Counted from the stretch's first letter, positions 90 through 62,979 are shown. The stretch is DNA of 64,000 nt from Deltaproteobacteria bacterium (GCA_022843175.1 JALHOE010000001.1:70988-134987), one strand, 5' to 3'. Translations and numbers: made by a program. Notes: generated by a model not told the origin, from the sequence alone.

Positions 90-106
90 GTGACCGCAGC
101 AGTCAC
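90..106. promoter_or_regulatory. GTGAC-N7-GTCAC dyad (copy 1), upstream of TonB receptor gene
   Basis: perfect dyad gtgaccgcagcagtcac read directly; intergenic. Confidence 0.6.
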
Positions 107-292
107 GGTACAACTTCGCTGGCGCACTCGCAGTTCATCGGCGATTGCAGGTGCAGCTGCGATCGTGTACGCGCGTTCTCGCCACCCAGCGTGCCGATGG
201 CGGCGACTCGATCGTCGAGTCGACCGTAGGCCGTTCGCGGTGGCGACCTGCGCGACGCCGCCGACAAGGTACGGGCGCATGTCGAGGCGTGC

Positions 293-2368
293 ATGGTTCC
301 CACTGTAAGGTTCCGCGTAACGATCGCGATCCTCGCGCTGAGCGGTGGACTCATGCGCACCGCAGCCGCCCACGAGCAGCCCCCGAGCGGCCCGACACCA
401 CCGCAGAAGCCCGCGGAGATCGTCGTGTCCGGCGACAAGGGCTACACCGCTGCCTCCGCCGACGAGGTTCGACACCGCGATCTGTCTCTTCGTCCCCGCG
501 TTCGTCCGGGCGACATCCTCTCGGTAGTGCCGGGATTGTTCGCCGTGCAGCACGCCGGGGGCGGCAAAGCGAACCAGTATTTCCTCCGCGGCTTCGACGC
601 GGACCACGGCACCGACATCGCGCTCTTCGTCGACGGCGTTCCGATCAACCTTCCGTCGCACGGTCACGGTCAGGGTTGGCTCGACATCCATTTCCTGATC
701 CCGGAGCTCGTCACGACGCTCTCGTCGAGCAAGGGGCCGTACCTGGCCCGGTACGGAGACTTTGCGACGGCCGGGGCCATCGACATCCGGCTGAGCGATC
801 ACATCCACGAGTCGAGCGTGCTCGTTCAGGGAGGAAGCTTCGGGTCCGCCCGTACGGTGTTCATGACTGCGCCGGAGCTCGGCGACGATTGGTCGACGAT
901 CGTCGCAGGCGAAGCGTCGACGTCGAACGGGCCGTTCCGCAATCCGGAACGTTTCCGCAAGCTCAACGTCTTCGGACGAGCGACGCGCCACCTCGGGCCC
1001 GGCGCGCTGTCGCTCACATGGATGTCGTACAGCGGCGGGTGGAACGCGTCGGGTCAGGTGCCGCTCCGCGCGATCGGCAAGGTGCCGGAGCTCCCCGACG
1101 AGTTCGGTACGATGGACCCGACGGAGGGAGGCAGCACGCAGCGGCATCAGTTGAGTGCGTCGTACGCGTATCGCCGCGGCGATGACGACACTCGCGCGGT
1201 CATCTACGCGACCCGTTACAACTTCGCGCTGTTCTCGAACTTCACGTTCTTCGCGCGCGACCCGGAGAACGGCGATCAGATCGCGCAGACCGATGGACGA
1301 ACCGTCGCCGGCGCCCATTGGTTCTACCGCCGCACGCGAGCCCTCGGCGGGTTGAAGCTCGCGAGCACCGTCGGCTTCCAAGCGCGCCACGACGCGATCC
1401 AGAACACACTCCACGAGACGCGAGCGCGCAAGAGCCTCGGCACCTCTGTCGACGCCGGCGTGTCGCAAACATCGATCGGCCTCTATGCCGAGGAGGACGC
1501 GACACTCCTTCCCTGGCTTCGCGTCATCGCGGGCCTCCGTGTGGATCGCTTCGATGTGTCGGTGCGCGACCGTCTCGAGCGCACGGATGGCGCGCAGACT
1601 TCCGGAATCGAGGGCGCCACGCTCGCCTCGCCGAAGCTCAGCGTGGTGCTGTCGCCCGCGCCGTTCATCAACATGTTTCTCAACTACGGCCGCGGCTTCC
1701 ACAGCAACGACGCGCGTGGTGCCGTGCGCCGTCTCGATCCGTCGTCGCCAGCGGTGACGCTCCTCGCTGTCGCAGACGGCTACGAAGCCGGCACGCGTCT
1801 CCGCCTGCTCGATCGTCTGGACATCGCCGCTGCCGTCTTCCGGCTCGACCTCCAGAGCGAGACCGTGTGGGTCGGCGACGAGGGAACGACCGAGGCCCGC
1901 GGTCCCACGCGGCGCATCGGTGCGGAGCTCGAGGCACGCGTGAAGCTCGCCAACTGGATCTTCGCCGACGCGGACGCGACGTTCACGAAGGCGACCTTCG
2001 TACAGAACGCGGGGAACGCCAACGCTGTCGCACTGGCACCGACGCGAACGTTCTCTGGCGGGATCGGCTTCAAGCATCCGCGCGGAACGTTCGGCAGCTT
2101 GCGTGTGCGATCGATCGCTGCGAGGCCGGCGACGGAGGATCGCGCGCTCGTCGCCGATGGCTGGACGGTGTTCGACGCCTCGCTCGGCCATCGTTTCGGT
2201 TGGCTCGAAGTCGCTGCGGACGTTCGGAACGTGCTGAACACGCGGTGGCGAGAGGTGCAGTTCGCGAACGAGTCGCGGCTCCGAACCGAGAGCGCCCCGG
2301 TCCGCGACATTCACTTCACGCCGGGCTGGCCGTTCACCGCTCTGGTGCGAGCCACAGCGTACTGGTGA
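293..2368 (+). CDS. TonB-dependent outer-membrane receptor
   Basis: 691-aa ORF. Signal peptide (AILALSGGLMRTAAAHE). Plug-type motifs (ILSVVPGLFAVQHAGGGKANQYFLRGFDADHGTD). Long beta-barrel region ending in aromatic ...ATAYW. Family call by motif recall only. Confidence 0.85.
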   Translation: MVPTVRFRVTIAILALSGGLMRTAAAHEQPPSGPTPPQKPAEIVVSGDKGYTAASADEVRHRDLSLRPRVRPGDILSVVPGLFAVQHAGGGKANQYFLRGFDADHGTDIALFVDGVPINLPSHGHGQGWLDIHFLIPELVTTLSSSKGPYLARYGDFATAGAIDIRLSDHIHESSVLVQGGSFGSARTVFMTAPELGDDWSTIVAGEASTSNGPFRNPERFRKLNVFGRATRHLGPGALSLTWMSYSGGWNASGQVPLRAIGKVPELPDEFGTMDPTEGGSTQRHQLSASYAYRRGDDDTRAVIYATRYNFALFSNFTFFARDPENGDQIAQTDGRTVAGAHWFYRRTRALGGLKLASTVGFQARHDAIQNTLHETRARKSLGTSVDAGVSQTSIGLYAEEDATLLPWLRVIAGLRVDRFDVSVRDRLERTDGAQTSGIEGATLASPKLSVVLSPAPFINMFLNYGRGFHSNDARGAVRRLDPSSPAVTLLAVADGYEAGTRLRLLDRLDIAAAVFRLDLQSETVWVGDEGTTEARGPTRRIGAELEARVKLANWIFADADATFTKATFVQNAGNANAVALAPTRTFSGGIGFKHPRGTFGSLRVRSIAARPATEDRALVADGWTVFDASLGHRFGWLEVAADVRNVLNTRWREVQFANESRLRTESAPVRDIHFTPGWPFTALVRATAYW

Positions 2369-2381
2369 CCGAGCCGGTCAC
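2365..2381. promoter_or_regulatory. GTGAC-N7-GTCAC dyad (copy 2)
   Basis: perfect gtgaccgagccggtcac; overlaps only the TGA stop of the TonB receptor gene; about 210 bp upstream of the micropeptide genes. Confidence 0.6.
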
Positions 2382-2589
2382 ATAGGTCTCCTGGCAGTCG
2401 CTCTGCCGGCCACTCGCACGCGGATCGTTCCGGGGTGCAGCGCACGCATTCGCTGCGATATCCGAACTGTGGTCGGCGCGGTCACGGTGCAACGTTGAGG
2501 TCAGCGCGCGGGCACTCGCCTTGCAGAAGCACGCGACGCCGCGGCACGAGGTCGCGGCGCTGTTAGACTCGTGACCTGGAGGTGCGCAC

Positions 2590-2667
2590 ATGAAGATTCG
2601 TATCCGCATTCGTCAGACCAACTGCAAGTTCTGCGGCGGAGCCTGCGGGTTCTTCTGCAACTGCTGA
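2590..2667 (+). CDS. unannotated 25-aa Cys-rich micropeptide (MKIRIRIRQTNCKFCGGACGFFCNC)
   Basis: ATG preceded by GGAGG 7 nt upstream. Five Cys in the last 14 residues. GC-rich third positions in the Cys-rich half. Below the 60-aa cutoff of the ORF track. Confidence 0.5.
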   Translation: MKIRIRIRQTNCKFCGGACGFFCNC

Positions 2668-2682
2668 TCGGAAGCCATCCCC

Positions 2683-2835
2683 GTGAAAGCTCTCCGTACG
2701 ACGAAGATCAAGAACGTGAAGGTTCGTCCTGCAGCCAAGACGCGCCTGCGTCACTGCGGCGATCCTCCGACGATGCGTCACTGCGGTGATCCGCCGATGC
2801 TTCGGCATTGCGGCGATCCGCCCGCTCGTCGCTGA
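2683..2835 (+). CDS. unannotated 50-aa peptide with three HCGDPP repeats (MKALRTTKIKNVKVRPAAKTRLRHCGDPPTMRHCGDPPMLRHCGDPPARR)
   Basis: GTG start fixed by an in-frame TGA five codons upstream and by alignment to the paralog at 47903-48052 (shared MK.LR....NVKV leader and HCGDPP repeats). Followed by a strong hairpin terminator. Confidence 0.6.
   Translation: MKALRTTKIKNVKVRPAAKTRLRHCGDPPTMRHCGDPPMLRHCGDPPARR
2749..2823 (+). repeat. 27-nt tandem repeat (about 2.8 copies) encoding R-H-C-G-D-P-P-x-x
   Basis: cgtcactgcggcgatcctccgacgatg / cgtcactgcggtgatccgccgatgctt / cggcattgcggcgatccgccc read directly. Confidence 0.8.
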
Positions 2836-2849
2836 CAAGCGGCCCTTGC

Positions 2850-2885
2850 ACGATGCCCCCGCACCGAAAGGAACGGGGGCATCGT
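2850..2885. terminator. bidirectional hairpin terminator between convergent genes
   Basis: perfect 11-bp stem acgatgccccc / gggggcatcgt with a 14-nt loop, followed by cttcttc; lies between the peptide gene (+) and the 2891-4759 gene (-). Confidence 0.6.
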
Positions 2886-2890
2886 CTTCT

Positions 2891-4759
2891 TCAGCGTCGT
2901 CGTCGCAGTGCGAGCGCGGTCACGACGGCCAACCACCCGAGCGATGGACCGAACTTCGTCGCTCCGGCGCCCATGCTGCAACCGCCACCATCGCTGCCGA
3001 CGTCGCCGTTCGGTCCCTGTGTCGCGCCGGGACTCCCGCCGCCGGAACCAGCGTCGCCGCCGGGCCCGGCCTCGGTGAACGTGCCGCCGTCCTTCTCGAC
3101 GGGATCCGGTTCTTCCTCCATCCCTGCGTCGAACAGACCACCATCCGGGGGTGCGGAGGGAGGCGGCGGCACCGTGGGGCCCGACCATCGTGTGAGCGCG
3201 TTGCGGATCATCGTCTCGTAGCGCGCGTCCTGGCTTCCCGCGAATCCGCCGCCCTTCGCGGCCCAGTCATCGAGCGCCCACGCCGTGAAGATCGCGCCCA
3301 TCGAAACGACCTCTGCGCCGGCCGGTGTACGGTAGAAGGCCGCCGAACCCTTGATCTTGCCGTCGGAGACTTGCTTGATCGCGCCAAGGACGCGCTGGCC
3401 AGGTGGCCGGAACTTGTCGAACTCGGGGCTGCTCGCGAGCGTAGAGTCGACTTCGTAACCGAAGACGTTGGCGATCTTGTCTCCGGCCTTCAGCCCAGTG
3501 CCGTCGTACAACCAGAACGTCGGATCGGTGACGATGAGATCCGCCCACGGGTAGAGACCGCCGTGCATCGGGTTGCCCGATGCATCGCGGATGATTCCTG
3601 CAGACTGCACGCCGGTGAGAAGCATGCCCGGACGACGCTCGTCGATCCCTGCTGCGGGATCGTACTCGAGGTTCTTCCACCCGCGCGTCACGAGGCGGTA
3701 CTTCGCCTTCGCCTCCTCGATCTTGCCAGCCGCTTTCAGCGAGTACGCTTCTTTCTGCATCGGGTCGCGCACCCAGCTCTCCTTGTACCCAACGATCGTG
3801 CTGCGCGGTCCGCCGGGACCCGCCTCGAAGCGCACCTGCCACGACCACGTGTCGCCCGAGAGGAAGAGGAAGTTCGCGCCGGCGTCGCGCGCACCCAGCG
3901 CGTTGTCATACATCGGCCGGCTTGTGTACTCCTCGTGTCCCGAGAACGTGATCACCTTGCGCCCCTTCGCGATCTCCGGATCGCGATCGAGGTCTTCATC
4001 GGTGCAATACGCGACCTCGTAGCCGTTCTTCTCGAGCCAGCGGATGAACGGGTACTCGTAGCCGCCGACGTCGGCGATACCGCCCCCAACGAGGAAGGGA
4101 CGATCGAGCGAGACCTTCACGGCCTGCGTCAACGTTCCGATCGATTCGCTCGGGTGCGCAGGGCTCGAGTTGAATCCGTAAAGGCTCTTGCCGCCGCGCT
4201 CCGGTCCCGGCCACGCGTTGTACACGGCGTGCGTCGCCAGTCCGACGACCAGGAGGATCGGCTGCTTCGCGGGCATCCCGTCGTCGCGCACGGTGAAGAA
4301 CGTGAGAGCCTGCTTGCCGCTCGCAGCCTCGACGCGCGCCACGTACAGGCCCGTGGTCCACGTCGAATCGGTCGGGACCGAGACCGAGTCCGGCCAACGC
4401 GCTTCCGCGATTCCGAACTTCTCGTCGGCCGCAGGGTAGCTCCGAGGCGACGCCGGTTGCGCGGTGATGACCTTCATCTCGCGCGCGCCGGTCCCGCCGT
4501 ACCACCCGAGTCGGAAGATCCGAACGTCGTATCCCGTCGTCGAATGGACCTTCAGCTTGACCGTATCGCCGCGTGCGATCGACCACTGCGCGGGGTAGAC
4601 GTCGACGACGCCGCCAAAGCGGGCCGTCCCATCGTTCACCACCGTCCAGCTTCCAGCGATGCCGCTCTTGCCGTTCTCTTCCGACACGACTCCGGCGTGC
4701 GCCACCGCGGATGAAGCGAGGGACGCGAGCACGAAGACCGAACCAACGACACGACGCAT
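2891..4759 (-). CDS. secreted N,N-dimethylformamidase beta-subunit-like (DUF6605-like) protein with a MYXO-CTERM sorting tag
   Basis: 622-aa ORF. Signal peptide (VFVLASLASSAVAHA). GAGGAGG Shine-Dalgarno before the ATG. Body resembles DMF-ase-like family by recall (RLGWYGG..., GLATHAVYNAW). C-terminus GGGCSMGAGATKFGPSLGWLAVVTALALRRRR is a Gly/Cys motif, a hydrophobic helix and an Arg cluster. Confidence 0.65.
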   Translation of the reverse strand: MRRVVGSVFVLASLASSAVAHAGVVSEENGKSGIAGSWTVVNDGTARFGGVVDVYPAQWSIARGDTVKLKVHSTTGYDVRIFRLGWYGGTGAREMKVITAQPASPRSYPAADEKFGIAEARWPDSVSVPTDSTWTTGLYVARVEAASGKQALTFFTVRDDGMPAKQPILLVVGLATHAVYNAWPGPERGGKSLYGFNSSPAHPSESIGTLTQAVKVSLDRPFLVGGGIADVGGYEYPFIRWLEKNGYEVAYCTDEDLDRDPEIAKGRKVITFSGHEEYTSRPMYDNALGARDAGANFLFLSGDTWSWQVRFEAGPGGPRSTIVGYKESWVRDPMQKEAYSLKAAGKIEEAKAKYRLVTRGWKNLEYDPAAGIDERRPGMLLTGVQSAGIIRDASGNPMHGGLYPWADLIVTDPTFWLYDGTGLKAGDKIANVFGYEVDSTLASSPEFDKFRPPGQRVLGAIKQVSDGKIKGSAAFYRTPAGAEVVSMGAIFTAWALDDWAAKGGGFAGSQDARYETMIRNALTRWSGPTVPPPPSAPPDGGLFDAGMEEEPDPVEKDGGTFTEAGPGGDAGSGGGSPGATQGPNGDVGSDGGGCSMGAGATKFGPSLGWLAVVTALALRRRR

Positions 4760-4867
4760 TGGGTGAACCTCCTCAAGCCGGCGTATGCCGGTCTGTCGCG
4801 GTCGTTCATCAAGCGTTGTGCCCTTCTCGGCTGTGCTGCCGCTTTACGGCAGACCCGGTCAGCGCCC

Positions 4868-4884
4868 GTGACTGCGTCGGTCAC
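4868..4884. promoter_or_regulatory. GTGAC-N7-GTCAC dyad (copy 3)
   Basis: perfect gtgactgcgtcggtcac; 109 bp upstream of the 4759 start (minus strand). Confidence 0.6.
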
Positions 4885-4965
4885 ACTTCTCGGAGCCGCT
4901 CCCAACCCGGTACACGGATCGTGGAGACGGCGATCCGAAGATCGGAGGCGTACAAGTTTCGCGTC

Positions 4966-4982
4966 GTGACCGGACGGGTCAC
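4966..4982. promoter_or_regulatory. GTGAC-N7-GTCAC dyad (copy 4)
   Basis: perfect gtgaccggacgggtcac; intergenic between lgt and the DMF-ase-like gene. Confidence 0.6.
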
Positions 4983-5000
4983 GTGCAGCCCGCGACCGCG

Positions 5001-5780
5001 TCATGCCGGTACGAGCGTGACGCGGTCGTTCTCGTCGCGACCACGGATCGCAACGAGCAGCACCACGCCGACGACGGCGAGCAACACGCTGCCGTACTGT
5101 GCCGGCGTCAGGCCCAGGTATCGAGCATCACCGACGCGAAGTGCGTCGAGCGCGAAGCGCACCGGAGCGTAGACCAGCGCAAGGAGTCCGGTGAAGAAGG
5201 CCGGCGGACGTCGACGACGACCGAGAACCGCGAAGAGAGCCGCGATGACGATCGTGTAGAGGGCCTCCTCAAGTCCGAGGTTGTGGCGAACGACGCCGTC
5301 GACGTACCGCTGACCGAGCACGAAGCTGGTGGCCCGCCCCACGTGATCGAACGCGAGCGCGCATCCGATTCGGCCGAAGATCCAGCCGAACGGAAAGGCG
5401 TACGCGATCGCGTCGACTTGACGCCACGAGTGTGCGGGCCGCCGACGCCAGATGTAGAGCGCAGCGCCCGCCACTGCGCCGACGAAGCCGCCGAAGGATC
5501 CGAGTCCGTCCCAGAGCCGAAACACACGCCATGGATCAGTGAGAAGCGTTCGCGGTTCGTAGAGCAGCAGATCGAGCACGTGGCCGCCGAGGAAGCCACC
5601 GAGCACCACCCAGGTCAGCATGCGGTCGATCTCTCCCGCGGGCAGCCCGATACGAACCGCGCGGCGGCGCGCGACCTCGGTTCCGACGAGCACCGCGATC
5701 GCAACGAGGACGCCGAAGGCGTAGATCGTCACCGGTCCGAGAGCGATCCGCGGCTGAGCAATGTACGGGAGCATTCGCAA
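5001..5780 (-). CDS. lgt: prolipoprotein diacylglyceryl transferase
   Basis: 259-aa polytopic membrane ORF with Lgt-type motifs (LGPVTIYAFGVLVAIA, GGFLGGHV, FGRIGCALAFDH, LGLTPAQYGS). Confidence 0.85.
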   Translation of the reverse strand: MRMLPYIAQPRIALGPVTIYAFGVLVAIAVLVGTEVARRRAVRIGLPAGEIDRMLTWVVLGGFLGGHVLDLLLYEPRTLLTDPWRVFRLWDGLGSFGGFVGAVAGAALYIWRRRPAHSWRQVDAIAYAFPFGWIFGRIGCALAFDHVGRATSFVLGQRYVDGVVRHNLGLEEALYTIVIAALFAVLGRRRRPPAFFTGLLALVYAPVRFALDALRVGDARYLGLTPAQYGSVLLAVVGVVLLVAIRGRDENDRVTLVPA

Positions 5781-5965
5781 GGTCTCCTTCTACGGGTACG
5801 TCCATGGAGACACGCGGTATCGATCGACGATTCCGCAAGCGCCGTGGGCGAGGCCGTTCGTGGAGAAGACGCAGCATCGCGCCGGCCATTACACGTGCCG
5901 CTACGGAAGAGACCGGCTCGTCGTGGCGTGTCGCTGGTGGTCATCGCCGAGGTTCCCGCATCTGC

Positions 5966-5982
5966 GTGACCGCGCGGGTCAC
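5966..5982. promoter_or_regulatory. GTGAC-N7-GTCAC dyad (copy 5), divergent lgt / Trx-lipoprotein region
   Basis: perfect gtgaccgcgcgggtcac. Confidence 0.6.
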
Positions 5983-6075
5983 GGTGCTCCCGGGGAACTT
6001 GATCCAGTCGACGAGACGCTTCTGGACGAACGTATCGATTCATGGGACGAACGTCGCGTCGCGGAGGGTGCTCTC

Positions 6076-6831
6076 ATGAAACGTCTCGCTGCTGTCGGCT
6101 GCATCTTCGTTCTCAATGCGTGTAGCTCGCCGAAGGATGCGGCGAATGCCGCCGACACCGCGCCGCCGGTCGAAGACACCGCGCCAGTCGAGGACACCGC
6201 TCCGTGGCTCACCTATCCGGAAGGCCCCTACGGACTGAAGGTTGGCGAGACGTTCCCGAACTTCTCGTTCAAGGGCTACAAGGACGGGACCGGCGAGTGG
6301 ACCGACATCTCGATGATCGACTACTACGATCCGGACGGCACGCGCGGGATCAACGGCATCTACTGGGTCGTGTCGGCGCAGTGGTGCCCGCCGTGCCGCG
6401 AGGAAGCGAAGATCCTGCCGGGGATGCTCGATCGCCTCTATCGCGCGCGCGGTGCGCGGTTCGCGACCGCGATGATTCAGGACAACAAGAGGAACCCCGC
6501 GACGCAGACGACGGTCGACCAGTGGCTCGCCGCGTACCGACTCAACTTTGACATCGTGCTCGACGACGAGCCGCAGACACTGCCTTCGAGCGGCAGCGTT
6601 GGCTTGCCGTACAACTACGTGATCAACCCGCGCGACATGAAGGTCTATCGCATCATCCAGGGCGTGAACCCTGACGCGACGACGATCCCGGCGCTCAGCA
6701 CGATGCTCACCAAGAACGGCGCGCCGCCCCTCGCGATGGATGCAGGGACGAGCTCAGACGCGGGAACGGCGACGGATACTGGCGCGACGACCGACACCGG
6801 AAGCTCCACGCCGGACACAGCCTCCGACTGA
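6076..6831 (+). CDS. thioredoxin-fold (TlpA/redoxin-like) lipoprotein, WCPPC active site
   Basis: ATG at 6076 with GGAGGG upstream. Lipobox FVLNAC. Motif SAQWCPPCREEAK. N-terminal YPEGPYG motif shared with the 7365-7973 paralog. The longer track ORF (5761) lacks a signal peptide. Confidence 0.85.
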   Translation: MKRLAAVGCIFVLNACSSPKDAANAADTAPPVEDTAPVEDTAPWLTYPEGPYGLKVGETFPNFSFKGYKDGTGEWTDISMIDYYDPDGTRGINGIYWVVSAQWCPPCREEAKILPGMLDRLYRARGARFATAMIQDNKRNPATQTTVDQWLAAYRLNFDIVLDDEPQTLPSSGSVGLPYNYVINPRDMKVYRIIQGVNPDATTIPALSTMLTKNGAPPLAMDAGTSSDAGTATDTGATTDTGSSTPDTASD

Positions 6832-6833
6832 GC

Positions 6834-7364
6834 GTGCGTCGGTACCTGCTGCCCTTAGCGCTTTCCATTGGTTGCGCGTCGAGTCCCGCGGCCGACCCCA
6901 GCGCGATGGACGCCGGACGCGCTCCCGTGAAGCATCGCTCGGTCGCCGAGACCTGCTCGCCCGATCCTCCAGCCTCCGATTGTTCGACCTGCAGCACATG
7001 CGCGGACGGCGCGATCTGCATGCAGGGCAAGCACATCTGCACGTGCAGGAAGGACGCGTGTTCGAACGACTCGCAGTGCGCGGACGGCGGCGTGTGCGCC
7101 TGTCGCACGACGGCGAAGGATGCGCGAGGGTTCAACATCTGTCTCGCCGGTAACTGTCGCGTGGACGCGGACTGCGGTGCCGGCGGCTACTGCTCGCCGA
7201 CGTGGGATCTCGCGTGCGGCGAGTCGAATGGCGTCGTCGGCTACTACTGCCACACGGCACGCGACGCCTGCGTCGACGACAGCGATTGCGTCGACGGCGG
7301 CAAGAGCGGGTACTGCGCGTGGTCCGTCGATCGGTGGAAGTGCGCCTACGCCGTGTGTCTGTAG
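6834..7364 (+). CDS. Cys-rich lipoprotein (Myxococcus-type cysteine-rich repeats)
   Basis: GTG start directly after the upstream stop. Lipobox LSIGC. Repeated C-x-x-D-x-(D/Q)-C-x-x-G-x-x-C units (CSNDSQCADGGVC, CRVDADCGAGGYC, CVDDSDCVDGG). Confidence 0.7.
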   Translation: MRRYLLPLALSIGCASSPAADPSAMDAGRAPVKHRSVAETCSPDPPASDCSTCSTCADGAICMQGKHICTCRKDACSNDSQCADGGVCACRTTAKDARGFNICLAGNCRVDADCGAGGYCSPTWDLACGESNGVVGYYCHTARDACVDDSDCVDGGKSGYCAWSVDRWKCAYAVCL

Positions 7365-7973
7365 CTACCCGCCGAGCAGGCGATCGAGATCGCCAGTGAT
7401 ACGCGGCAGGTCGGCGCCCACGACCTTCGTCACGATCTTCATCGTCTGCAGATCGATGATCATGTTCAGCGGCATTGCGCTCTTGTCGAAGAACTGCGTC
7501 ACGTACCCGTCGTCGTCGTTCGCGACCGGATAGGTGAGCCCGTACGTCTGAATCCAGAGGTCGACGTTCGCGTCCGTGGCCGGCTTGCGCGCCGCGTCCT
7601 CGAGAACGATCGTCAGGAACGCGACGCCCTTCGGGCCGTAGTTGGGCACGATGCGCGACTGCATCTCCTTCGCTTCCTCCTTACAGGGAGAGCACCAGAA
7701 GGCCGCCACGTTCAGCACCATGTAGCGCTTGCCCTCGTTGCGCATCGCGTAGTAGCTCGCGAGGTCGAAGGTTTCCCGAGGCGTCGCGAGCCCCCCCTTG
7801 TGGCCGCGAAACGCACCGTTCTCGACGACCTTCCCAACCTCGGTGCCGTATGGCCCGGCGGGATACGCGCCGCTCGCGGTCGTGCCGCTGTCCGGAGGGG
7901 TCTTGCCCAACGGCTCCGACGAGCAGGCGCTGGCGATCGCCAGGAGAACTACAACGATCCAACATGCGCGCAT
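7365..7973 (-). CDS. thioredoxin-fold (TlpA/redoxin-like) lipoprotein, WCSPC active site
   Basis: start at internal ATG 7973 (MRACWIVVVLLAIASAC lipobox); AAFWCSPCKEEAKEM; YPAGPYG motif. Confidence 0.85.
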   Translation of the reverse strand: MRACWIVVVLLAIASACSSEPLGKTPPDSGTTASGAYPAGPYGTEVGKVVENGAFRGHKGGLATPRETFDLASYYAMRNEGKRYMVLNVAAFWCSPCKEEAKEMQSRIVPNYGPKGVAFLTIVLEDAARKPATDANVDLWIQTYGLTYPVANDDDGYVTQFFDKSAMPLNMIIDLQTMKIVTKVVGADLPRITGDLDRLLGG

Positions 7974-8040
7974 CGGTGAGCATCTAGCGCTCTGTTCCGA
8001 TGACGACAACTCGGCTTGCGTGTTGCTCGCGCGGTCACAT

Positions 8041-8057
8041 GTGACTGCTGCGGTCAC
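8041..8057. promoter_or_regulatory. GTGAC-N7-GTCAC dyad (copy 6), divergent Trx / Trx region
   Basis: perfect gtgactgctgcggtcac; extra GTCAC half-sites at 8034 and 8060. Confidence 0.6.
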
Positions 8058-8096
8058 GCGTCACAGCGTCAAGATGGCGATAACCTGCCGCGCTTG

Positions 8097-8621: not shown

Positions 8622-8634
8622 GGCACGTCGAACG

Positions 8635-10461: not shown

Positions 10462-10474
10462 CGTGCTCCGCTCT

Positions 10475-10491
10475 GTGACCGATGCAGTCAC
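10475..10491. promoter_or_regulatory. GTGAC-N7-GTCAC dyad (copy 7), 36 bp upstream of the multicopper oxidase
   Basis: perfect; arms extend to 9 bp (ctctgtgac cgatgca gtcacagag). Confidence 0.65.
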
Positions 10492-12047: not shown

Positions 12048-12062
12048 CACTGGGAGCTTCGC

Positions 12063-52638: not shown

Positions 52639-52841
52639 GTTGAGCTCTCCGATGCCGGAGCGACTGCTGCAATCGCTGTGAACGAACGCTGCCCCCGGAC
52701 CCTTGAACGTCTGTGTCACGTTGGCACTGGCCCATCTGTGGAGGTTGCTTCCAATCTCGCAAAACTACCGTGCGTCCGGCACGTGATGCTCTCGCCGCTC
52801 GAGGCGATACCGCGGCCGGGGCAGCGTTACGGTCGAGGCGC

Positions 52842-54638: not shown

Positions 54639-54699
54639 TTCAGTTCGTGCGGACGTTGCAAGTGCGGCGCCCACGTGGATCGCACGGTACGGCGATCGC

Positions 54700-56493: not shown

Positions 56494-56560
56494 GCGCTCG
56501 ATCAACAGCAGCCCTCGCCGCGAGCGCCGGAGACGACCGGCGCGATCGTCGCCCTGCCGG
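56494..56560 (+). mobile_element. solo fragment of the 3' end of the same IS family as 40790-41739
   Basis: gcgctcgatcaacagcagcc..ccgcgagcgccggagacgaccggcg.gatcgt..ccctgccg matches 41635-41700 almost base for base. Confidence 0.6.
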
Positions 56561-56579
56561 TCCTCGCGGGCCGCTGCTC

Positions 56580-56972
56580 GCCTGCACGCCGCGCGATCAT
56601 CGCGGGCAACACCGCGCGCGACAGCGCCATCGCCGCCAGGACGTGCAGTCGTACCATCGCGAGCTGCTTCTCGAGATCGGCCTCCGCGAACGGCGCGGAT
56701 GTGCCGAAGCCCGCCGCGTTGATCAACGTGCCGACGTCCTCGATCGCACGCACGTGAGCCGCAACATCTCGCCACTGCTCGGCGAGATCGGCGACGACGA
56801 TCTCCGGCGAGGCGCCCCGGCCACGCAGCTCGTTCGCAAGTGCCTCGAGCCGTTCGCGCCGGCGCGCGATGATGACCACGCGTCGACCGTCGTACGCGAG
56901 GGCTCGCGCGAATGCCCATCCGATTCCGCTCGACGCTCCCGTCACCACAGCTGTCCCTGAGGGCGCGCTCAC
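56580..56972 (-). pseudogene. 3'-truncated short-chain dehydrogenase translationally coupled to cusA
   Basis: GTG 56972 overlaps the cusA stop (GTGA). It encodes MSAPSGTAVVTGASSGIGWAFARAL...LPAMIARRAG, then runs into antisense IS-fragment sequence; the catalytic S/YxxxK half is missing. Confidence 0.55.
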
Positions 56973-59900
56973 GCCCGCTCCGTCGCCTGCGGGCGAAGCT
57001 GTTGCGTGCGCCACACTACCCACGCAGCTGGGATCACGAGCAGCGTGAGGATCGTGAGCGACACGAGGCCACCCCACATCGGCGCGGCGATGCGCTTGGC
57101 GACGTCGGCTCCGACGCCGGTGTCGAGCAGGACCGGGAGCAAGCCGAAGATGTTCGTCATCACCGTCATGAGAAGCGGGCGCACGCGCTTGCTGCCGGCG
57201 TCGATGGCGGCGTCGACGAGGTCGCTCGTGCTCGTGAAACCAGCGGAACCACCGCGGGCCTCCCACGCTTCGTCGAGATATACGACCATCACGCTCGCAG
57301 TCTCGGCGGCGACACCGAGCAGCGCGATCATGCCGACCCACACGGCGATAGAGGTGTTGAACTTCGCGAACCACAACGTCCACACGGCGCCGACGGCAGC
57401 GAACGGCACGGCGGTCATGACCAGGAGCGTCTGCGTCACGCCGCGGAAGTTCATGTAGAGAATCAAGAACACGATGCCGAGGGTCAAGGGGATGACGTAA
57501 GCCATTCGCTCGCGGACGCGCTCGAGGAGCTCGTATTGGCCCGTCCATTTGATCATGTATCCGGGAGGCAGCTTCACCTCGCGCGCGACGACCTCCTTCG
57601 CATCGGCCACGTAACCGCCGACATCGCGCCCGTCGAGATCGACGTAGATCCAGCCGGTGAGTTGGCCAACCTCGCTCTTGATCATCGGCGGTCCCATGAC
57701 GGTCTCGACTCTGGCGAGCTGACCGAGTGGGACGAATGCTGCTGGCCTCGCCGGTGTTGCGGACGCACCGTTGGCCATTCCGCTGCCCATGCCGTCGTCG
57801 CCGGCCGGCGCAGCCGCTGTCATCGCGTCACCCGAAGCCATCTCGTCACCGCCGGTGCTGCCGCCGCGCACGGCGCTCGCGTTCCACACCGCGTTGACGG
57901 GACGCTTTCCGGGCGTGGCCCGCACCGGAACGAGGACCTCGCGGAGTGAAGCAAGATCTTGCCGGAGGTCGCGCGGGTATCGAACGTTGATCCGATATCG
58001 TTCGCGACCCTCGATGGTCGTGCTCACGTCCATGCCGCCGATCGCGCTCTCGACGACGTCGAGGACATCGCGAACGGTCACGCCGTACCGGGCGATCGCC
58101 TCGCGATCGGGTGTGATGTCGAGGAAGTAGCCGCCGAGCTCTCGCTCCGCGTAGACGCTGCGGGTGCCGCGGACCTTGCGCAGCGCCATCTCGATCTGAT
58201 CGTTAACGGCGACGATCCCTTCGAGCCCGGGGCCGAACACCTTGACGCCTATCGGCGTACGAATGCCGGTCGAGAGCATGTCGATGCGTGCCTTGATCGG
58301 CATCGTCCACGCACCCTGGATACCCGGAAGCGACGCCTTCGCCTCGAGCTCCGCGATGACCTTCTCCATGGTCATGCCGCTGCGCCATTGCTCGCGCGGC
58401 TTGAGTCGGATGACTGTCTCGAACATCGAGAGCGGCGCGGGGTCGAGTGCAGTCTCGGCTCGGCCCGTCTTGCCGAAGACCTGCTCCACCTCGGGAACGC
58501 TCTTGATCTGGGCATCCTGCCAGCGGAGCAATCGGCGCGCCTCCTCGATCGGAATCGAGGGCACGGAGATCGGCATGTACAGCAAGTCTCCCTCGTACAG
58601 CGGCGGCATGAACTCCGAGCCGAGGCGGACGAACGGCCACGCGGTGCCGACACTCAATCCGATCGCAGCGAGTAGAACGACCCAGCGGCCGCGGAGGCAG
58701 GCACGGAGCAGGGGACGGTACGCGTTGACGCAGAATCGGTTGATCGGGTTCTGCGCTTCTGGCCGGATCTTCCCACGGAGAAACCACACCATGAGCGCCG
58801 GCACGAGGGTGACGGCGAGAACCGACGAGAAGGCCATGGACGCCGTCTTCGCCAGCGCGAGTGGGCGGAACAGTCGGCCCTCCTCGCCCTCGAGCACGAA
58901 CACGGGCAGGAACGCGATCGTGAGGACGAGCAGCGCCCCGAACATCGACGGACCGAGGTCGCGCGCCGCGCCGATCACGAGCTCTTTCCGGTCGACGTTC
59001 GAGCCCTCCCGCTCGGCCTCCTCGATCTTCTTGTGTGCGTTCTCCACGAGGACGACGGCGGAATCGACCATGTCGCCGAGCGCGAGGATCACGCCCGCAA
59101 GCGACATGATGTTGATCGTCATCTTCAGCGCCCAGAACGCGATGAACGATCCGATGGTCGCGACGATGAGCGTGATGACGCTCACGAGCGACGAGCGGAA
59201 GTGGAAAAGGAAGACGGCGATCACGATCAGGACCACGCCGATGATCTGCGCGACGTTGACACCGAGCGTGCGGACCGATTCGTTGATCAGCTGGCTGCGA
59301 TCGTAGACCGGCACGACCTTCACGCCCGGCGGTAGCGAGCCCTGGACCTCGGCGAGCTTGGCCTTGACGCGCTTGATCACATCGAGCGCGTTCTCTCCGT
59401 ACCGCATCACGACGATGCCGCCGACCACCTCGCCGCGGCCGTCGAGATCGACGAGCCCACGACGGATATTTCCGCCGATCACTACGGTGGCGACATCTTG
59501 GATCCGGATCGGCGTGCCGTCCGCCCTGGTCGCGATGACCGCAAGCTCGATGGCGCGCTTGTCCTGCACGTAGCCGCGTCCGCGGACGGCATGTTCGTGC
59601 TGCGCGATCTCGACCACGCGGCCCCCGACCTCGTCGTTCGAGCCGCGAATCGCGCCGGCAACCTGCGCGACGGTGATCCCGAACGCCTTCATGCGCACGG
59701 GGTCCATCTCGACCTGGTATTCCTTCTCGAAGCCGCCGACGCTCGCGACCTCGGCCACTCCCTCGACGCTCTGTAGCCAGTAACGCAGGTACCAGTCCTG
59801 GAACGATCGCAGCTGCTGCAGATCGTTCTTCCCGCTCTCGTCGACGAGCGCGTACTGGAACACCCACCCGACGCTCGTCGCGTCCGGACCGAGCTGGGGG

Positions 59901-60301
59901 GTCACGCCGGGGGGCAGCTTCTCCCGGACCTTCGAGAGGTACTCGAGCACGCGCGAGCGCGCCCAATACACGTCGGTGCCGTCCTTGAAGATGACGTAGA
60001 CGAACGACATCCCGAACATCGTGAATCCACGGACGGTCTTCACGTTCGGCGCGCCGAGGAATGTCGTCACGATCGGATAAGTGACCTGATCCTCGATGAC
60101 GGTCGGGTTGCGGCCCATCCACTCGGTCGCGACGATGACCTGTGTGTCCGAGAGATCGGGCAGCGCATCGAGCGGCGTGTTTCGCGCGGACCATACGCCG
60201 AACACGGTGATGGCGAGTGCGGCGAGCACGACGAGAAACCGCTGTCGTCCCGAGAAGTCGATGATGCGAGCGATGACGCCGAGGCGCGGCTCAGTGGCCA
60301 C
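56969..60301 (-). CDS. cusA: HME-RND efflux pump, CusA-type (Cu/Ag)
   Basis: 1110 aa; LALGDMVDSAVVLVENAHKK signature (compare CusA AIGAMVDAAIVMIENAHK); about 55-aa Met/Asp/Gly-rich insertion. Confidence 0.9.
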   Translation of the reverse strand: MATEPRLGVIARIIDFSGRQRFLVVLAALAITVFGVWSARNTPLDALPDLSDTQVIVATEWMGRNPTVIEDQVTYPIVTTFLGAPNVKTVRGFTMFGMSFVYVIFKDGTDVYWARSRVLEYLSKVREKLPPGVTPQLGPDATSVGWVFQYALVDESGKNDLQQLRSFQDWYLRYWLQSVEGVAEVASVGGFEKEYQVEMDPVRMKAFGITVAQVAGAIRGSNDEVGGRVVEIAQHEHAVRGRGYVQDKRAIELAVIATRADGTPIRIQDVATVVIGGNIRRGLVDLDGRGEVVGGIVVMRYGENALDVIKRVKAKLAEVQGSLPPGVKVVPVYDRSQLINESVRTLGVNVAQIIGVVLIVIAVFLFHFRSSLVSVITLIVATIGSFIAFWALKMTINIMSLAGVILALGDMVDSAVVLVENAHKKIEEAEREGSNVDRKELVIGAARDLGPSMFGALLVLTIAFLPVFVLEGEEGRLFRPLALAKTASMAFSSVLAVTLVPALMVWFLRGKIRPEAQNPINRFCVNAYRPLLRACLRGRWVVLLAAIGLSVGTAWPFVRLGSEFMPPLYEGDLLYMPISVPSIPIEEARRLLRWQDAQIKSVPEVEQVFGKTGRAETALDPAPLSMFETVIRLKPREQWRSGMTMEKVIAELEAKASLPGIQGAWTMPIKARIDMLSTGIRTPIGVKVFGPGLEGIVAVNDQIEMALRKVRGTRSVYAERELGGYFLDITPDREAIARYGVTVRDVLDVVESAIGGMDVSTTIEGRERYRINVRYPRDLRQDLASLREVLVPVRATPGKRPVNAVWNASAVRGGSTGGDEMASGDAMTAAAPAGDDGMGSGMANGASATPARPAAFVPLGQLARVETVMGPPMIKSEVGQLTGWIYVDLDGRDVGGYVADAKEVVAREVKLPPGYMIKWTGQYELLERVRERMAYVIPLTLGIVFLILYMNFRGVTQTLLVMTAVPFAAVGAVWTLWFAKFNTSIAVWVGMIALLGVAAETASVMVVYLDEAWEARGGSAGFTSTSDLVDAAIDAGSKRVRPLLMTVMTNIFGLLPVLLDTGVGADVAKRIAAPMWGGLVSLTILTLLVIPAAWVVWRTQQLRPQATERA

Positions 60302-61520
60302 TGTGACCTCCGGGGCCGCCAGATGTCGCCCGAAGGCGACTCTCCGAGTCGATCAGGAACTGCGCGCTCGTCGCGACGACATCGCCGGCGGCGAGGCCAC
60401 TCGTCACGCGAAAGTGCCCGGCGACCTGCGGGCCGAGCACCACTTCGCGCGGCACGATGTGCGCGCCACCGTCTGCCGCCGAGTGCACCACGAACACGAT
60501 CTTCCGCGTGCCGGCGTGAACGACCGAGGTTTCGGGGACGGCGAGTCCGCGACCCAGCGGCAGATCGAGCTCCGCGGTCGCGAACGCGCCCGGTTTCAGC
60601 TTGCCGGTCGTATTCGGCACGTCGAGGCGAACCTTCAGCGTGCGCGTCGCCTCGTTGATCACCGGTGAGATGAACGTGACTTTGGCGGCGAGCGGATCGG
60701 CGATCCCTTCGACGGTGAGTCGTGCCGACTGGCCGAGGGCCACATGGGGAACGTCGGCCTCGTAGACATCGATGAGGGTCCACAGATTCGACAGGTCGGA
60801 GATCGTGAACAGCTCCGCCCCTGGCTCCACGTAGTTGCCGAACACTGCCTGCTTCGCCACGAGGACGCCGGCACGCGGCGAGGCGATGGCGTAGGTGCGC
60901 TGCGGCTCGAGCGTCTTCTCGAGCCGATCGATCTGGGCGCGCGGCACGTCCCAGAGAAGCAGCCGGCGGCGCGACGCTTCGAGGATCTTCTCGCGCGACT
61001 TGCTCTCGGCGTCGTCGGCGATGGGGTCGCCGAGTGACAGCCGTGGTTGCTTGAGGAATGCCAAGTACTCGAGCTGCGCCGCGTACACGGTTTGGCTATA
61101 AATCGCGGCGAGCACCTCGCCCTTCGTCACGGTCTTCCCGACGAAGTCGGCGGGAAGCGCCTCGATGAAACCCTTCACCTTCGCGTGCACGTGTGCGGTT
61201 CGCCTCTCGTCGAGTGCGACGATGCCGACCGTGCGGAGGTTCCTCGTGAAGTCCCTCTCCTCGACCTTGGCGGTGGCGAGCCCGAGTGGTCCGACGCGCG
61301 AGGGATCGATCGTAATCGGCACGTACCCGCTCGGCGCGCCGGCCGGCGCGTGATCGGCGTGGCTGCCGCCGTCGAGTGAGGGCGCCGGGGACGGCGCCAC
61401 GCTCGCTACCGGAGCATGTGCGGCGTGGCCAGCGTGATCGGTGCCCTGTGCACACTGCCCGCCGAGGCCCAGCGCCGCGAACAGCGTCGCACCGAGCGCG
61501 CCGAGGGCCCGCCTCGTCAT
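60291..61520 (-). CDS. cusB: RND membrane fusion protein (CusB-like) with His-rich termini
   Basis: ATG 61520 overlaps the cusC stop; HAGHAAHAP...SHADHAP N-terminus and GGHSGH C-terminus; the 873-aa track ORF is an out-of-frame extension over cusC. Confidence 0.85.
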   Translation of the reverse strand: MTRRALGALGATLFAALGLGGQCAQGTDHAGHAAHAPVASVAPSPAPSLDGGSHADHAPAGAPSGYVPITIDPSRVGPLGLATAKVEERDFTRNLRTVGIVALDERRTAHVHAKVKGFIEALPADFVGKTVTKGEVLAAIYSQTVYAAQLEYLAFLKQPRLSLGDPIADDAESKSREKILEASRRRLLLWDVPRAQIDRLEKTLEPQRTYAIASPRAGVLVAKQAVFGNYVEPGAELFTISDLSNLWTLIDVYEADVPHVALGQSARLTVEGIADPLAAKVTFISPVINEATRTLKVRLDVPNTTGKLKPGAFATAELDLPLGRGLAVPETSVVHAGTRKIVFVVHSAADGGAHIVPREVVLGPQVAGHFRVTSGLAAGDVVATSAQFLIDSESRLRATSGGPGGHSGH

Positions 61521-62788
61521 GACGGCACCGCGACCCGGGGGGTGCCAACAGCACGTCCGAGCTTGACCCAGGTGATCGCGAGCCGGATCTCCGACACCAC
61601 CTGCTCCATCCGGGTCATCCGCAACATCGCGAGAGAATCGAGCACCGACACGAGCGGTGCCTGGCCGGTCCCATAGCTCGCGAGTTGGAGTGAGACCGCC
61701 TGCCTGGCGATCGGCACCAACTTGTCGCGCGTCGTCTCGAAGCGGATTTTGGCCGCGACGACTGCGCCGCGCGCGCTCGCCACCTCGCCCTCGATCATCT
61801 TCCGCATGGCGGCGGTCTCGGCGTCGACCATCGTCGACATCTGCGTCGCTTCGGCGACTCCCGCACCGAGCTTCTCTCGCCAGAGCGGCACGCTGACGCC
61901 GACCATGAGCATCACGCCGGGGCCATCCGCCATCGTGTACGACGGGCCCGTCCGGACGAAGGCCATCGGGTTGTACATCGACTTCATGACCGCGATGTCG
62001 GCCTGCGCCTTTTCGAGCTTGAACTTCATCACGGTCAATTCGGGGCGCTTCGCAATTGCGAGCGTGACGAGCTTGGGGTTGTCCGGTGGCTCGCTCGTAG
62101 GCACCGTGAGCGCGGTCTCCGGGACGCTCGCTTCGACCGAACGTGCGAGTGTCGCGTTGAGCATGCCCTTCGCCGCGACGAGCTCGGCATCGACGGCCGT
62201 GCGCTCGCTCGTGAGTCGTGCGACGTCGAGCCGCGCGCGCACGACGTCGCCGGCGCTGCCGGTGCCACCCTCGAGTCGGGCGAGCGTCGCTTCGACGATG
62301 GCCTTCGCGGTCGCAATCTGTTCGTCGAGCACGGCCTGCATCCGCTCGCGCTCGACGACCATCAGGTAAGCGACCAACGCCTCCACTTCGACGTCGAGAG
62401 CGACGCGACCCACGTCCGCGCCAGCTGCGCGAGCGTCGGCCTCGGCGGAGGCCTTCTTGTTCCCGAGGACGCCCGACAATGGAAAGTCCTGCTGCACAAG
62501 CAGGGTCGCGTCGACGCCGGTCAGCTTGAGCGGCAGATGATCCATGGAGACCATGACCATCGGATCGGGCAACGCAGAAACCACCTTCGGCGTCTCCGCG
62601 AGCGCGCCCGCCTTTGCCTTCGCCGCCGCGATCTCCGCTCGGTGCGCTTTCGCCCACGTGACCACGTCGTCCGGATGGAGCGGCGATGGGAGTGCCGCAG
62701 GTGCCTGTGCGTGTGCGTTCGTTGCGCCGAGTGCGATGGAGGCGGCGACAGCAATGAGCGGGAGCCAATGAGGTCGGCGAGAGCGCAT
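61517..62788 (-). CDS. cusC: TolC-family outer-membrane factor (CusC-like)
   Basis: ATG 62788 gives signal peptide MRSRRPHWLPLIAVAASIALGATNAHA; TolC-like repeat helices. Confidence 0.85.
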   Translation of the reverse strand: MRSRRPHWLPLIAVAASIALGATNAHAQAPAALPSPLHPDDVVTWAKAHRAEIAAAKAKAGALAETPKVVSALPDPMVMVSMDHLPLKLTGVDATLLVQQDFPLSGVLGNKKASAEADARAAGADVGRVALDVEVEALVAYLMVVERERMQAVLDEQIATAKAIVEATLARLEGGTGSAGDVVRARLDVARLTSERTAVDAELVAAKGMLNATLARSVEASVPETALTVPTSEPPDNPKLVTLAIAKRPELTVMKFKLEKAQADIAVMKSMYNPMAFVRTGPSYTMADGPGVMLMVGVSVPLWREKLGAGVAEATQMSTMVDAETAAMRKMIEGEVASARGAVVAAKIRFETTRDKLVPIARQAVSLQLASYGTGQAPLVSVLDSLAMLRMTRMEQVVSEIRLAITWVKLGRAVGTPRVAVPS

Positions 62789-62895
62789 GCTCGACTGCAA
62801 CAGCAATCTGCAGGCCGCGCGAGAGTTGCGGATGTCCTCGAACTTCAGCGATTTTGGCGGCGCGAATCGCGTGCGCGGCGGTGCAGCTTCTGCGA

Positions 62896-62912
62896 GTGAC
62901 CGGCACGGACAC
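62896..62912. promoter_or_regulatory. GTGAC-N7-GACAC dyad (one mismatch), upstream of cusCBA
   Basis: gtgaccggcacggacac. Confidence 0.4.
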
Positions 62913-62962
62913 AGGTTTGCCCGGCGTTTCGACAGCGCGTCCTTTGCACCGTGTCCGCGTTG

Positions 62963-62979
62963 GTCACGATCGCGGTGAC
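62963..62979. promoter_or_regulatory. everted GTCAC-N7-GTGAC dyad
   Basis: gtcacgatcgcggtgac, between cusC and the beta-propeller gene. Confidence 0.3.

Follow-up and report, generated by a model that had tools for sequence, protein, structure and literature searches.

A 17-bp dyad, GTGAC-N7-GTCAC, recurs in a 64-kb stretch of genomic DNA from a Deltaproteobacteria bacterium (the whole stretch is called the window here), and its sequence, location and conservation make it very probable that a dimeric regulator of a copper and envelope-redox regulon uses it as operator. The window holds 13 perfect matches, as a preliminary description of the same DNA had counted, compared with 0.21 expected from 100 dinucleotide shuffles, whose maximum was 1. 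Eleven of the 13 start coordinates given there were exact, and two had to be moved, from 45029 to 45039 and from 48114 to 48115 (Table 1). When palindromes with 5-bp arms and spacers of 3-10 bp were compared, this one was the commonest in the window, and GTGAC/GTCAC was the sole recurrent 5-mer palindrome containing A/T, the others being plain CG-rich low-complexity sequence.

According to our own gene map, built from third-position GC plus Pfam, the coding fraction of the window is 0.908 and the remaining non-coding DNA amounts to 5.9 kb (9.2%). Twelve of the 13 perfect dyads are wholly non-coding, where 0.006 would be expected, and the last one, at 2365, shares only the TGA stop of the TonB receptor gene; it had already been said that no perfect copy was found inside a confidently called coding region and that 2365 touches a stop codon only. 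Four one-mismatch dyads were also judged genuine (14272, 48232, 62896 and 62951). The first and third were found again, the other two had been missed, and the everted copy noted at 62963 is present as GTCAC-N7-GTGAC. A fifth one-mismatch match, at 55990, is intragenic and chance-like.

We built a motif matrix from 33 sites in four genomes, namely the window and three related loci, L004 (a Logan contig), L005 (GCA_046593995.1) and L130 (a JGI contig found by alignment of the thioredoxin (Trx)-like lipoprotein Ahp1). The consensus is yGTG(A/t)CY(G/c)-N3-(C/g)RG(T/a)CACr, corresponding to two 6-7-bp half-sites with centres 12 bp apart, and the spacing is N7 in 33 of 33 sites. Among the perfect copies of the window, 10 of 13 begin their dyad with the longer left arm GTGACCG and 5 of 13 have CGGTCAC on the right; the full 7-3-7 dyad occurs in just 3 of 13, so the earlier view that most copies extend to GTGACCG-N3-CGGTCAC was overstated. 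The 9-bp arms reported for the copy at 10475 are correct (CTCTGTGAC/GTCACAGAG).

The gene families beside the dyads are the same in all four genomes and form a coherent, copper- or redox-linked set: multicopper oxidases, Trx-like lipoproteins, DUF305, DUF326, cusCBA, cytochrome c peroxidase (CCP), TonB receptor and Cys/His micropeptides. Sites between divergently transcribed genes number at least five (90, 5966, 8041, 17807 and 62896/62951). The block of czc, ars and mer-like genes is free of dyads, as previously observed, with zero sites at up to one mismatch between 20011 and 42236, and a stretch of apparently native genes at 49-62 kb has none apart from the chance-like match at 55990.

Independent evidence for the operator interpretation comes from related genomes. 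Homologues of its DMFA2_C-like protein, the closest being 88% identical, assign the window to uncultured Polyangiales, a group of myxobacteria. L004 shares the gene order of the window for lgt, DMFA2_C, the micropeptides and the TonB receptor and carries 4 perfect dyads at orthologous intergenic positions, and L005 carries 3 in 6 kb. L130, in which Ahp1 is 95% identical and the gene order is rearranged, has 4 perfect and ~5 one-mismatch dyads, adjoining two multicopper oxidases, the FN3-lipoprotein, Ahp1, a GMC oxidoreductase, an RHCGxPP micropeptide and an adenylate-cyclase-YHS fusion. When the regions 5' of TonB, DMFA2_C and Ahp1 were aligned, the arms proved invariant and the spacers different, the flanks of L005 being unalignable. 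Dyad 5966, for example, is kept in L004, in L130 and, with one mismatch, in L005 amid unalignable flanks; the arms of dyad 4868 are retained in L005 (1470), and the aligned position in L004 is degenerate (GTAGCC...GGTCAC). The phylogenetic footprinting that had been proposed thus finds the dyad kept at orthologous promoters in three related genomes, with its spacers changed.

Control loci were nearly devoid of the motif. L001-L003, L126, L128, L129 and L131 have zero dyads and L127 has one, giving 1 site in 139 kb of same-clade controls versus 24 sites in 101 kb of island loci. L128 consists of 16 kb of metal genes from the metagenome-assembled genome (MAG) of L005, and the distant DMFA2_C loci L001-L003 have a different gene context. 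A metagenome scan seeded with Ahp1 returned two loci, L130 and L131, the latter a paralogue without dyads. A scan of the GTDB genome collection with GTGACCGNNNCGGTCAC gave at least 120 matches and was used as chance background only; among the matches listed, almost all were singletons in unrelated taxa and chance-like.

In the regulon that we propose, one dimeric helix-turn-helix regulator would recognise the dyad and coordinate ~15 operons, whose role would be extracytoplasmic copper handling plus thiol/peroxide redox chemistry. Its products would include two multicopper oxidases, five Trx/AhpC-like lipoproteins, the cytochrome c peroxidase, DUF305, DUF326-GH15 and cusCBA, as well as the TonB receptor, the DMFA2_C-like protein and the Cys/His-rich micropeptides. 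We infer from the sequences the binding of a protein to the dyad, a copper or envelope-oxidative-stress signal and the direction of control. Some observations weigh against the proposal: no regulator gene is next to any dyad in the window, several copper/redox units of the window (51-56 kb) are without a dyad, and dyad 48115 has no target gene. The statement that nearly every copper/redox transcription unit has a site is too strong, as the DUF326b operon, SDR (short-chain dehydrogenase), GH15b and VKOR are without one.

Nature of the dyad

The 45 bp flanking each side of the dyads are unrelated between copies, which argues that the dyad is not a repeat unit of the repetitive extragenic palindromic (REP) type or a mobile one of the miniature inverted-repeat transposable element (MITE) kind. 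Changes within the arms are informative on the choice between a protein-binding site and a hairpin. Single-arm variants (GTGTC, GACAC or GTTAC) face a consensus partner arm in 9 of 9 cases among the 33 sites, resulting in 7 outright mispairs at positions 4/14 and 2 G-T wobbles at 3/15. Towards the centre, complementary bases are present at 7/11 in 15 of 33 sites and at 8/10 in 4 of 33, the inner positions varying independently on each side. Since the arm changes are uncompensated, the half-sites are conserved as sequence, as a dimeric DNA-binding protein predicts and a hairpin does not, and the earlier preference for a dimeric protein over an RNA hairpin is borne out.

A generic REP-like palindrome, or an RNA or terminator hairpin, would be spread genome-wide and have no regulatory meaning for these genes. 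The dyad is indeed palindromic, intergenic and multi-copy, and 7 copies are just past the 3' end of the upstream gene (2365, 4966, 10475, 14272, 15911, 19994 and 48115), the last of these without a gene downstream; in addition, the 20-42 kb gap could reflect a recent insertion beside a transposase. We nonetheless regard this explanation as very improbable. Besides the arm changes that are never compensated and the inner stem positions left unpaired in about half of the sites, neither flank, tail nor T-run is conserved, a simple terminator scan flagged no dyad, and in the window an Rfam search gave no match and no RAYT gene was found. The sites between divergent genes, at least five, are hence not transcribed as 3' ends. 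Moreover, copies follow their gene families through the rearranged order of L130, and they are missing both from the 16-kb contig (L128) of the MAG that carries 3 copies in 6 kb (L005) and from 49-62 kb. The generic repeat that the preliminary description had kept as its alternative is made very improbable by unrelated flanks and by sites kept at orthologous positions with changed spacers.

A site of chromosome organisation, marking a chromosomal domain instead of promoters as matS does with MatP, is still harder to credit. In E. coli, the Ter macrodomain covers ~800 kb. It contains 23 matS sites of 13 bp, GTGAC(A/G)N(T/C)GTCAC, which share with our dyad identical 5-bp arms and the clustered, multi-copy arrangement of a palindrome (PMC3116907). 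The spacer of the dyad is N7 and not N3, and its density of 1 site per 5 kb is higher than that of 23 sites in the Ter macrodomain. All copies are intergenic by gene starts and promoter-proximal, they move with the genes on rearrangement, and where the cluster is interrupted, for 22 kb in its middle, the genes form a block of different function. The taxon differs as well, as MatP is reported from enteric bacteria only (PMC7188993).

Promoter elements and candidate regulators

Sigma-54-like -24/-12 elements accompany part of the dyads. Strong ones precede pepA (2510), DUF305 (45114) and pepB2 (47830), and weaker ones precede the DMFA2_C-like gene and cusC. Of the 33 dyads in the four genomes, 14 have within 250 bp an element that faces outward and scores at least 9, compared with 9.6% of random positions, a control that is generous because its positions are mostly coding, the dyads being intergenic, and because orthologous sites are counted repeatedly. 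Three genomes retain the pepA promoter: L004 has the identical sequence, and at the equivalent place L005 has CGGCCTTCAGTTTGCA, which is different but valid. The centre of dyad 2365 is ~164 bp 5' of the pepA/pepB transcription start predicted from this element. At the DMFA2_C-like gene, GGCAC...CTTGATGA is invariant across the window, L004 and L005. The -12 GC is only 14-15 nt before the ATG at DUF305 (45114-45142), cusC (62789-62817) and a methyltransferase gene of L130 (4214-4243), and the corresponding mRNAs, judging from this spacing, would be leaderless or nearly so.

No sigma-70 consensus promoter was detectable in 1-20000, so that overlap of the dyads with core promoters is not readable from the sequence. 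A MerR-type promoter, with the dyad in a 19-bp spacer, was also considered and rejected, as no consistent -35/-10 elements flank the dyads and the same region has no sigma-70 consensus.

The regulator may be encoded in L130. In this locus, the one-mismatch dyad 15176 is in a divergent promoter region and is immediately followed by an operon for a histidine kinase and an NtrC-family response regulator; a sigma-54-like element of that region points the opposite way from the operon. The kinase combines a His-rich periplasmic segment with HAMP, HisKA and HATPase domains; the C-terminal domain of the response regulator has no Pfam HTH_8 match in the precomputed annotation. Such an operon was found in L130 only, none being present in the window, L004 or L005.

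ZraSR is a metal-triggered envelope stress system, and the NtrC site, TGCACCA-N3-TGGTGCA, has a 7-3-7 architecture. Our leading candidate for the protein that binds the dyad, although somewhat less likely than not, is the response regulator of the ZraSR-like system of L130, to which the 7-3-7 geometry, the outward sigma-54-like elements and the position of the kinase/response-regulator operon behind a dyad all point. Bound 53-210 bp upstream, an NtrC-type regulator would switch on the sigma-54 promoters of the micropeptides, the DMFA2_C-like gene, DUF305 and cusC, and it would occlude promoters where the dyad is 44-80 bp from the start codon, in the way that NtrC occludes the glnAp1 promoter. 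Several observations do not fit this assignment. Several dyads, at 44-58 bp from the ATG, are too near for enhancer looping, and no credible -24/-12 element is found between dyad and start codon at six sites or more (90, 10475, 14272, 17807, 19994 and 42237). In addition, the element of the DMFA2_C-like gene has GA at -12, the dyad of the kinase operon has one mismatch, and the link to this regulator comes from a single locus.

We give about the same probability as to the NtrC type to a one-component regulator from a different family (CRP/MrpC-like or TetR-like). According to this explanation, which is likewise a serious possibility but somewhat less likely than not, the dyad would be the operator of a classical CRP/FNR-family, MrpC-related or TetR-type dimer acting on sigma-70-type promoters, most probably a metal- or oxidant-released repressor, and the nearby sigma-54-like elements would be served by other activators. 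In the window, 13 of the 17 sites are perfect over all 10 arm bases, and sites of such high information are typical of repressor operators (LexA, Fur, TetR). About half of the sites are centred 44-102 bp from start codons and at least five are placed centrally in divergent regions, a position in which overlap with core promoters would be expected; the failure to detect a sigma-70 consensus in 1-20000 leaves this overlap unsupported. Similarity exists between the half-site (T)GTGAC, with GTGTC as its commonest variant, and the half-sites of CRP (TGTGA-N6-TCACA) and of MrpC of Myxococcus (GTGTC-N8-GACAC), but the spacing matches neither. Sites 160-210 bp 5' of micropeptide promoters in four genomes are hard to reconcile with repression, and in the ~100 kb of dyad-rich DNA of the four genomes we detected no gene for a regulator of this class.

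An adenylate/guanylate cyclase domain fused to a copper-binding YHS domain is encoded in L130 (7881-8534, -), 143 bp 3' of the one-mismatch dyad 8677. This fusion could link copper to cyclic-nucleotide signalling and, for the one-component explanation, could feed a regulator binding cyclic nucleotide monophosphates (cNMP).

If the response regulator of L130 is taken up again as the binder, a broader proposal follows, namely that a previously undescribed metal-sensing two-component system of uncultured Polyangiales runs a large envelope copper/redox stress regulon via the dyad. Judged on sequence features, this whole is rather doubtful. It would combine a kinase with a His-rich periplasmic segment and an NtrC-family regulator with a non-canonical DNA-binding domain, sigma-54 promoters being switched on and overlapping promoters off. 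The regulon would take in the CKFCGGxCG... and RHCGDPP micropeptide families and a possible selenocysteine Trx-like lipoprotein.

Other regulators were discarded. The MarR (34901), the MerR (40070) and the two extracytoplasmic function (ECF) sigma genes of the window are in the dyad-free block and have no dyad upstream, which makes the MarR at 34901, formerly put forward as a candidate binder, unlikely. Hidden small regulator genes were sought in the gaps of the window and none was found. Apart from the L130 response regulator, the only other DNA-binding regulator gene found in ~100 kb of dyad-rich sequence encodes a PspF-like sigma-54 enhancer-binding protein (EBP) beside Ahp1 in L004, and it was rejected because its orthologue loci L126, L128 and L129 are without dyads. 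The loci of this activator carry TCCA-N3-TGGA palindromes 5' of very strong sigma-54 promoters (TGGCAC-N5-TTGCT), and this motif is absent from the window. The short PspF-like activator itself is found repeatedly in Cu/Hg islands, following HMA and zf_CopZ genes, and seems to belong to a metal-responsive sigma-54 circuit of its own, on which metallochaperone-like proteins possibly act in trans.

Gene content of the island

The first 20 kb of the window contain the TonB receptor, two micropeptide genes, the DMFA2_C-like gene, lgt, three AhpC/TSA-type lipoprotein genes, DUF6029, two multicopper oxidases (one behind an FN3-like lipoprotein gene), a di-haem CCP fusion and several Cys-rich or unannotated lipoproteins. 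Ahp3 heads the gene row Ahp3-DUF6029-MCO1-Cys171. MCO2 is not frameshifted, as 15362-15811 is the separate FN3-like lipoprotein gene; in L130, the pair of FN3-like lipoprotein and multicopper oxidase is likewise behind dyads, at 1333 and 1418. Between 20 and 42 kb are a CDF transporter, czcCBA, the two ECF sigma genes, an ars cluster (ArsH, MFS-GAPDH, ArsC), MarR, MerC-MerR and a transposase. The dyad-free block proper (20024-42100) also holds NlpC/P60 and ends at the rve-type transposase (41052-41945). This block divides the dyad-bearing island in two and was probably inserted there. The last part, 42-64 kb, contains DUF326-GH15, DUF305/DUF4142, a GMC oxidoreductase, a third micropeptide gene, a second DUF326 operon, SDR, GH15, VKOR and cusCBA.

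Table 1. Positions of dyads, sigma-54-like elements, micropeptide genes and PspF-like activator loci. Coordinates are those of the window unless a locus is named; distances run from the dyad centre to the start codon.
Feature	Position	Strand	Distance (bp)	Context
Perfect dyad GTGACCGCAGCAGTCAC	90-106		TonB 195	between NHL/SGL-like beta-propeller gene (start 28, -) and TonB receptor (start 293); L004 orthologue at 7630, spacer different
Perfect dyad	2365-2381		pepA 217	overlaps TonB stop codon; L004 orthologue at 5379
Sigma-54-like -24/-12 element GGGCACTCGCCTTGCA	2510-2525	+		5' of pepA (2590-2667) and pepB (2683-2835); score 14.1
GGGCAC-N5-TTGAT element	4808-4823	-		5' of DMFA2_C-like gene; sigma-54-like but -12 is GA, not GC
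Perfect dyad, proximal	4868-4884		DMFA2_C-like 117	5' of DMFA2_C-like gene (2891-4759, -)
Perfect dyad, distal	4966-4982		DMFA2_C-like 215	5' of DMFA2_C-like gene, just 3' of lgt; L004 orthologue at 2786
Perfect dyad	5966-5982		Ahp1 102	divergent region, lgt (start 5780, -) / Trx-like lipoprotein Ahp1 (start 6076)
Perfect dyad	8041-8057		Ahp2 76; Ahp3 48	between Trx-like lipoprotein genes Ahp2 (start 7973, -) and Ahp3 (start 8097); extra half-sites 8032, 8060
Perfect dyad, 9-bp arms	10475-10491		MCO1 44	5' of multicopper oxidase MCO1 (10527-12047)
One-mismatch dyad, GTTAC arm	14272-14288		u309 ~49	5' of lipoprotein u309 (start 14231, -), then Trx-like gene with in-frame TGA
Perfect dyad	15911-15927		FN3-lipoprotein-MCO2 108	5' of FN3-like lipoprotein gene (15362-15811, -), then multicopper oxidase MCO2 (from 14439)
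Perfect dyad	17807-17823		lip218/CCP 57/58	midway between CCP fusion (start 17757, -) and lipoprotein lip218 (start 17872)
Perfect dyad	19994-20010		lip173 79	5' of lipoprotein lip173 (start 19923, -); final site ahead of czc/ars/mer block
Perfect dyad	42237-42253		DUF326a 102	5' of DUF326a (42347), then GH15a; first site past transposase 41052-41945
Perfect dyad	45039-45055		DUF305 95	5' of DUF305/DUF4142 lipoprotein gene (ATG 45142)
Sigma-54-like element TGGCGCGCTCGTTGCT	45114-45129			5' of DUF305/DUF4142 gene
Sigma-54-like promoter of pepB2	47830-47845
Perfect dyad	48115-48131			63 bp past micropeptide gene pepB2 (47905-48052); no obvious gene downstream
One-mismatch dyad, GTGTC arm	48232-48248			overlaps stop codon of SDR gene fragment
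Weak sigma-54-like element CGGCCTGCAGATTGCT	62802-62817	-		-12 GC 15 nt before cusC ATG
One-mismatch dyad, GACAC arm	62896-62912		cusC 115	5' of cusC (ATG 62789, -), first gene of cusCBA (56969-62789)
One-mismatch dyad, GTGTC arm, plus third half-site giving everted repeat 62963	62951-62979		cusC 170	between cusC and beta-propeller lipoprotein gene (ATG 63056)
Micropeptide genes	2590-2667, 2683-2835, 47905-48052	+		from sequence
Micropeptide genes in relatives	L004 ~5135, ~5007; L005 ~3761; L130 ~10860	-		from sequence
PspF-like activator loci	L004 2-673; L126 8745-11041; L127 3602-10987; L128 7581-10972; L129 472-1551			AAA+ plus HTH_8, no receiver

The micropeptides belong to two conserved, unannotated families, MK(I/F)RIRIR(Q/E)T(N/Q)CKFCGGxCG...C and one with 2-3 RHCG(D/N)PP repeats, neither of which has an NCBIfam match. 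Their genes adjoin the DMFA2_C-like gene and the TonB receptor, and sigma-54-like promoters precede them in several genomes; the peptides could be copper-binding or precursors of ribosomally synthesized and post-translationally modified peptides (RiPPs). In L005 (4046-4062) and L130 (11237-11253), the last part of an MFS gene includes a perfect dyad, translated there as MVT(S/A)SVTW. The dyad is 195-210 bp 5' of the micropeptide promoter and thus at a position equivalent to dyad 2365. These copies may be selected within coding sequence or may reflect shared ancestry.

Upstream of the TonB receptor, a ~50-bp block at 180-232 (TCGCCACCCAGCGTGCCGATGGCGGCGACTCGA...TCGAGTCGACCGTAGGCCG) contains a hairpin and is near-identical in L004 (~7480-7540, -) amid diverged DNA. 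It has no Rfam match and, from its conservation, could be a leader or promoter element.

The lipoprotein frame at 12591-13289 (-), of high GC3, has one in-frame TGA (12964-12966) in a Trx-like motif, W-[TGA]-G-I-C. At ~17 nt 3' of this TGA is a hairpin of 7 bp, GCCACC(A)...GGTGGC, and the fold energy is unexceptional (z = -0.03). The protein has no Pfam match, even with Cys substituted, and the gene could encode a selenocysteine protein or be a pseudogene.

GH15 genes (glucoamylase/trehalase-like) are repeatedly near copper genes. They are beside DUF326 Cys-rich proteins twice in the window (42347-44615 and 50726-54722), and in L126 (11678-14764) GH15 adjoins a BufA1/MbnB (bufferin-type RiPP) pair. 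Two SDR gene fragments, 48245-48532 (-) and 56502-56960 (-), are apparently pseudogenes, and the first ends at dyad 48232. This suggests local rearrangement, which may have orphaned dyad 48115.

Relation to known systems

A literature search found no report of a GTGAC-N7-GTCAC motif. The motif and the proposed regulon are new, while a regulator binding site is a familiar kind of feature. A clean operator with 10 invariant bases, kept across genomes, gives a handle for computing the whole copper/envelope-redox regulon, and the dyad is usable as bait for its regulator by DNA affinity or DAP-seq. Function becomes assignable to unannotated members, such as the DMFA2_C-like protein, DUF6029, the GH15 partners of DUF326, the Cys-rich lipoproteins and the Cys/His micropeptides. 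The value therefore resides in the specific regulon and its uncharacterised members, and in the annotation of a poorly known lineage.

The target types (multicopper oxidases, Cus efflux, copper-binding periplasmic proteins) are those of CsoR, CopY, CueR, CusR/CopR and CorE/CorSR. We know of no operator of CsoR, CopY, CueR or CusR/CopR with the form GTGAC-N7-GTCAC, and no CsoR, CopY or CueR gene is associated with dyads in the window. To our knowledge, myxobacterial copper homeostasis is known from Myxococcus xanthus only (CorE, CorSR), with nothing for the large, mostly uncultured Polyangiales. The Myxococcus regulators are an ECF sigma factor (CorE) and an OmpR-type two-component system (CorSR) (PMC3107203, PMC3707914). 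These are not palindrome binders and differ in this from what the dyad would require.

With REP sequences and bacterial interspersed mosaic elements (BIMEs), the dyad shares its nature of short, intergenic, multi-copy palindrome. It differs in being a perfect, orientation-less 17-mer without conserved flank or tail, confined to one functional gene set, absent from another contig of the same bin and often placed between divergent promoters.

CRP and MrpC resemble the system in the half-site (T)GTGAC, in the commonest variant GTGTC/GACAC (7 of 9 variant arms), in palindromy, in the variable distance to promoters and, for MrpC, in the myxobacterial lineage. The Cmr site is TGTCA-N6-TGACA. On the contrary, the invariant N7 is neither N6 nor N8, which agrees with the earlier remark that the spacing is wrong for CRP and MrpC, and no cNMP-binding regulator was found near the sites.

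Compared with the upstream activating sequence (UAS) of NtrC/ZraR, the half-site sequence is different, about half of the dyads are without -24/-12 elements and 44-80 bp from start codons, and the L130 response regulator has a C-terminus without a Pfam HTH_8 match. The dyad nevertheless shares with it a 17-bp 7-3-7 layout, a location 53-210 bp 5' of sigma-54-like promoters at several operons, the occurrence of single or paired sites and, in L130, an operon of a ZraSR-like kinase and an NtrC-type regulator behind a dyad.

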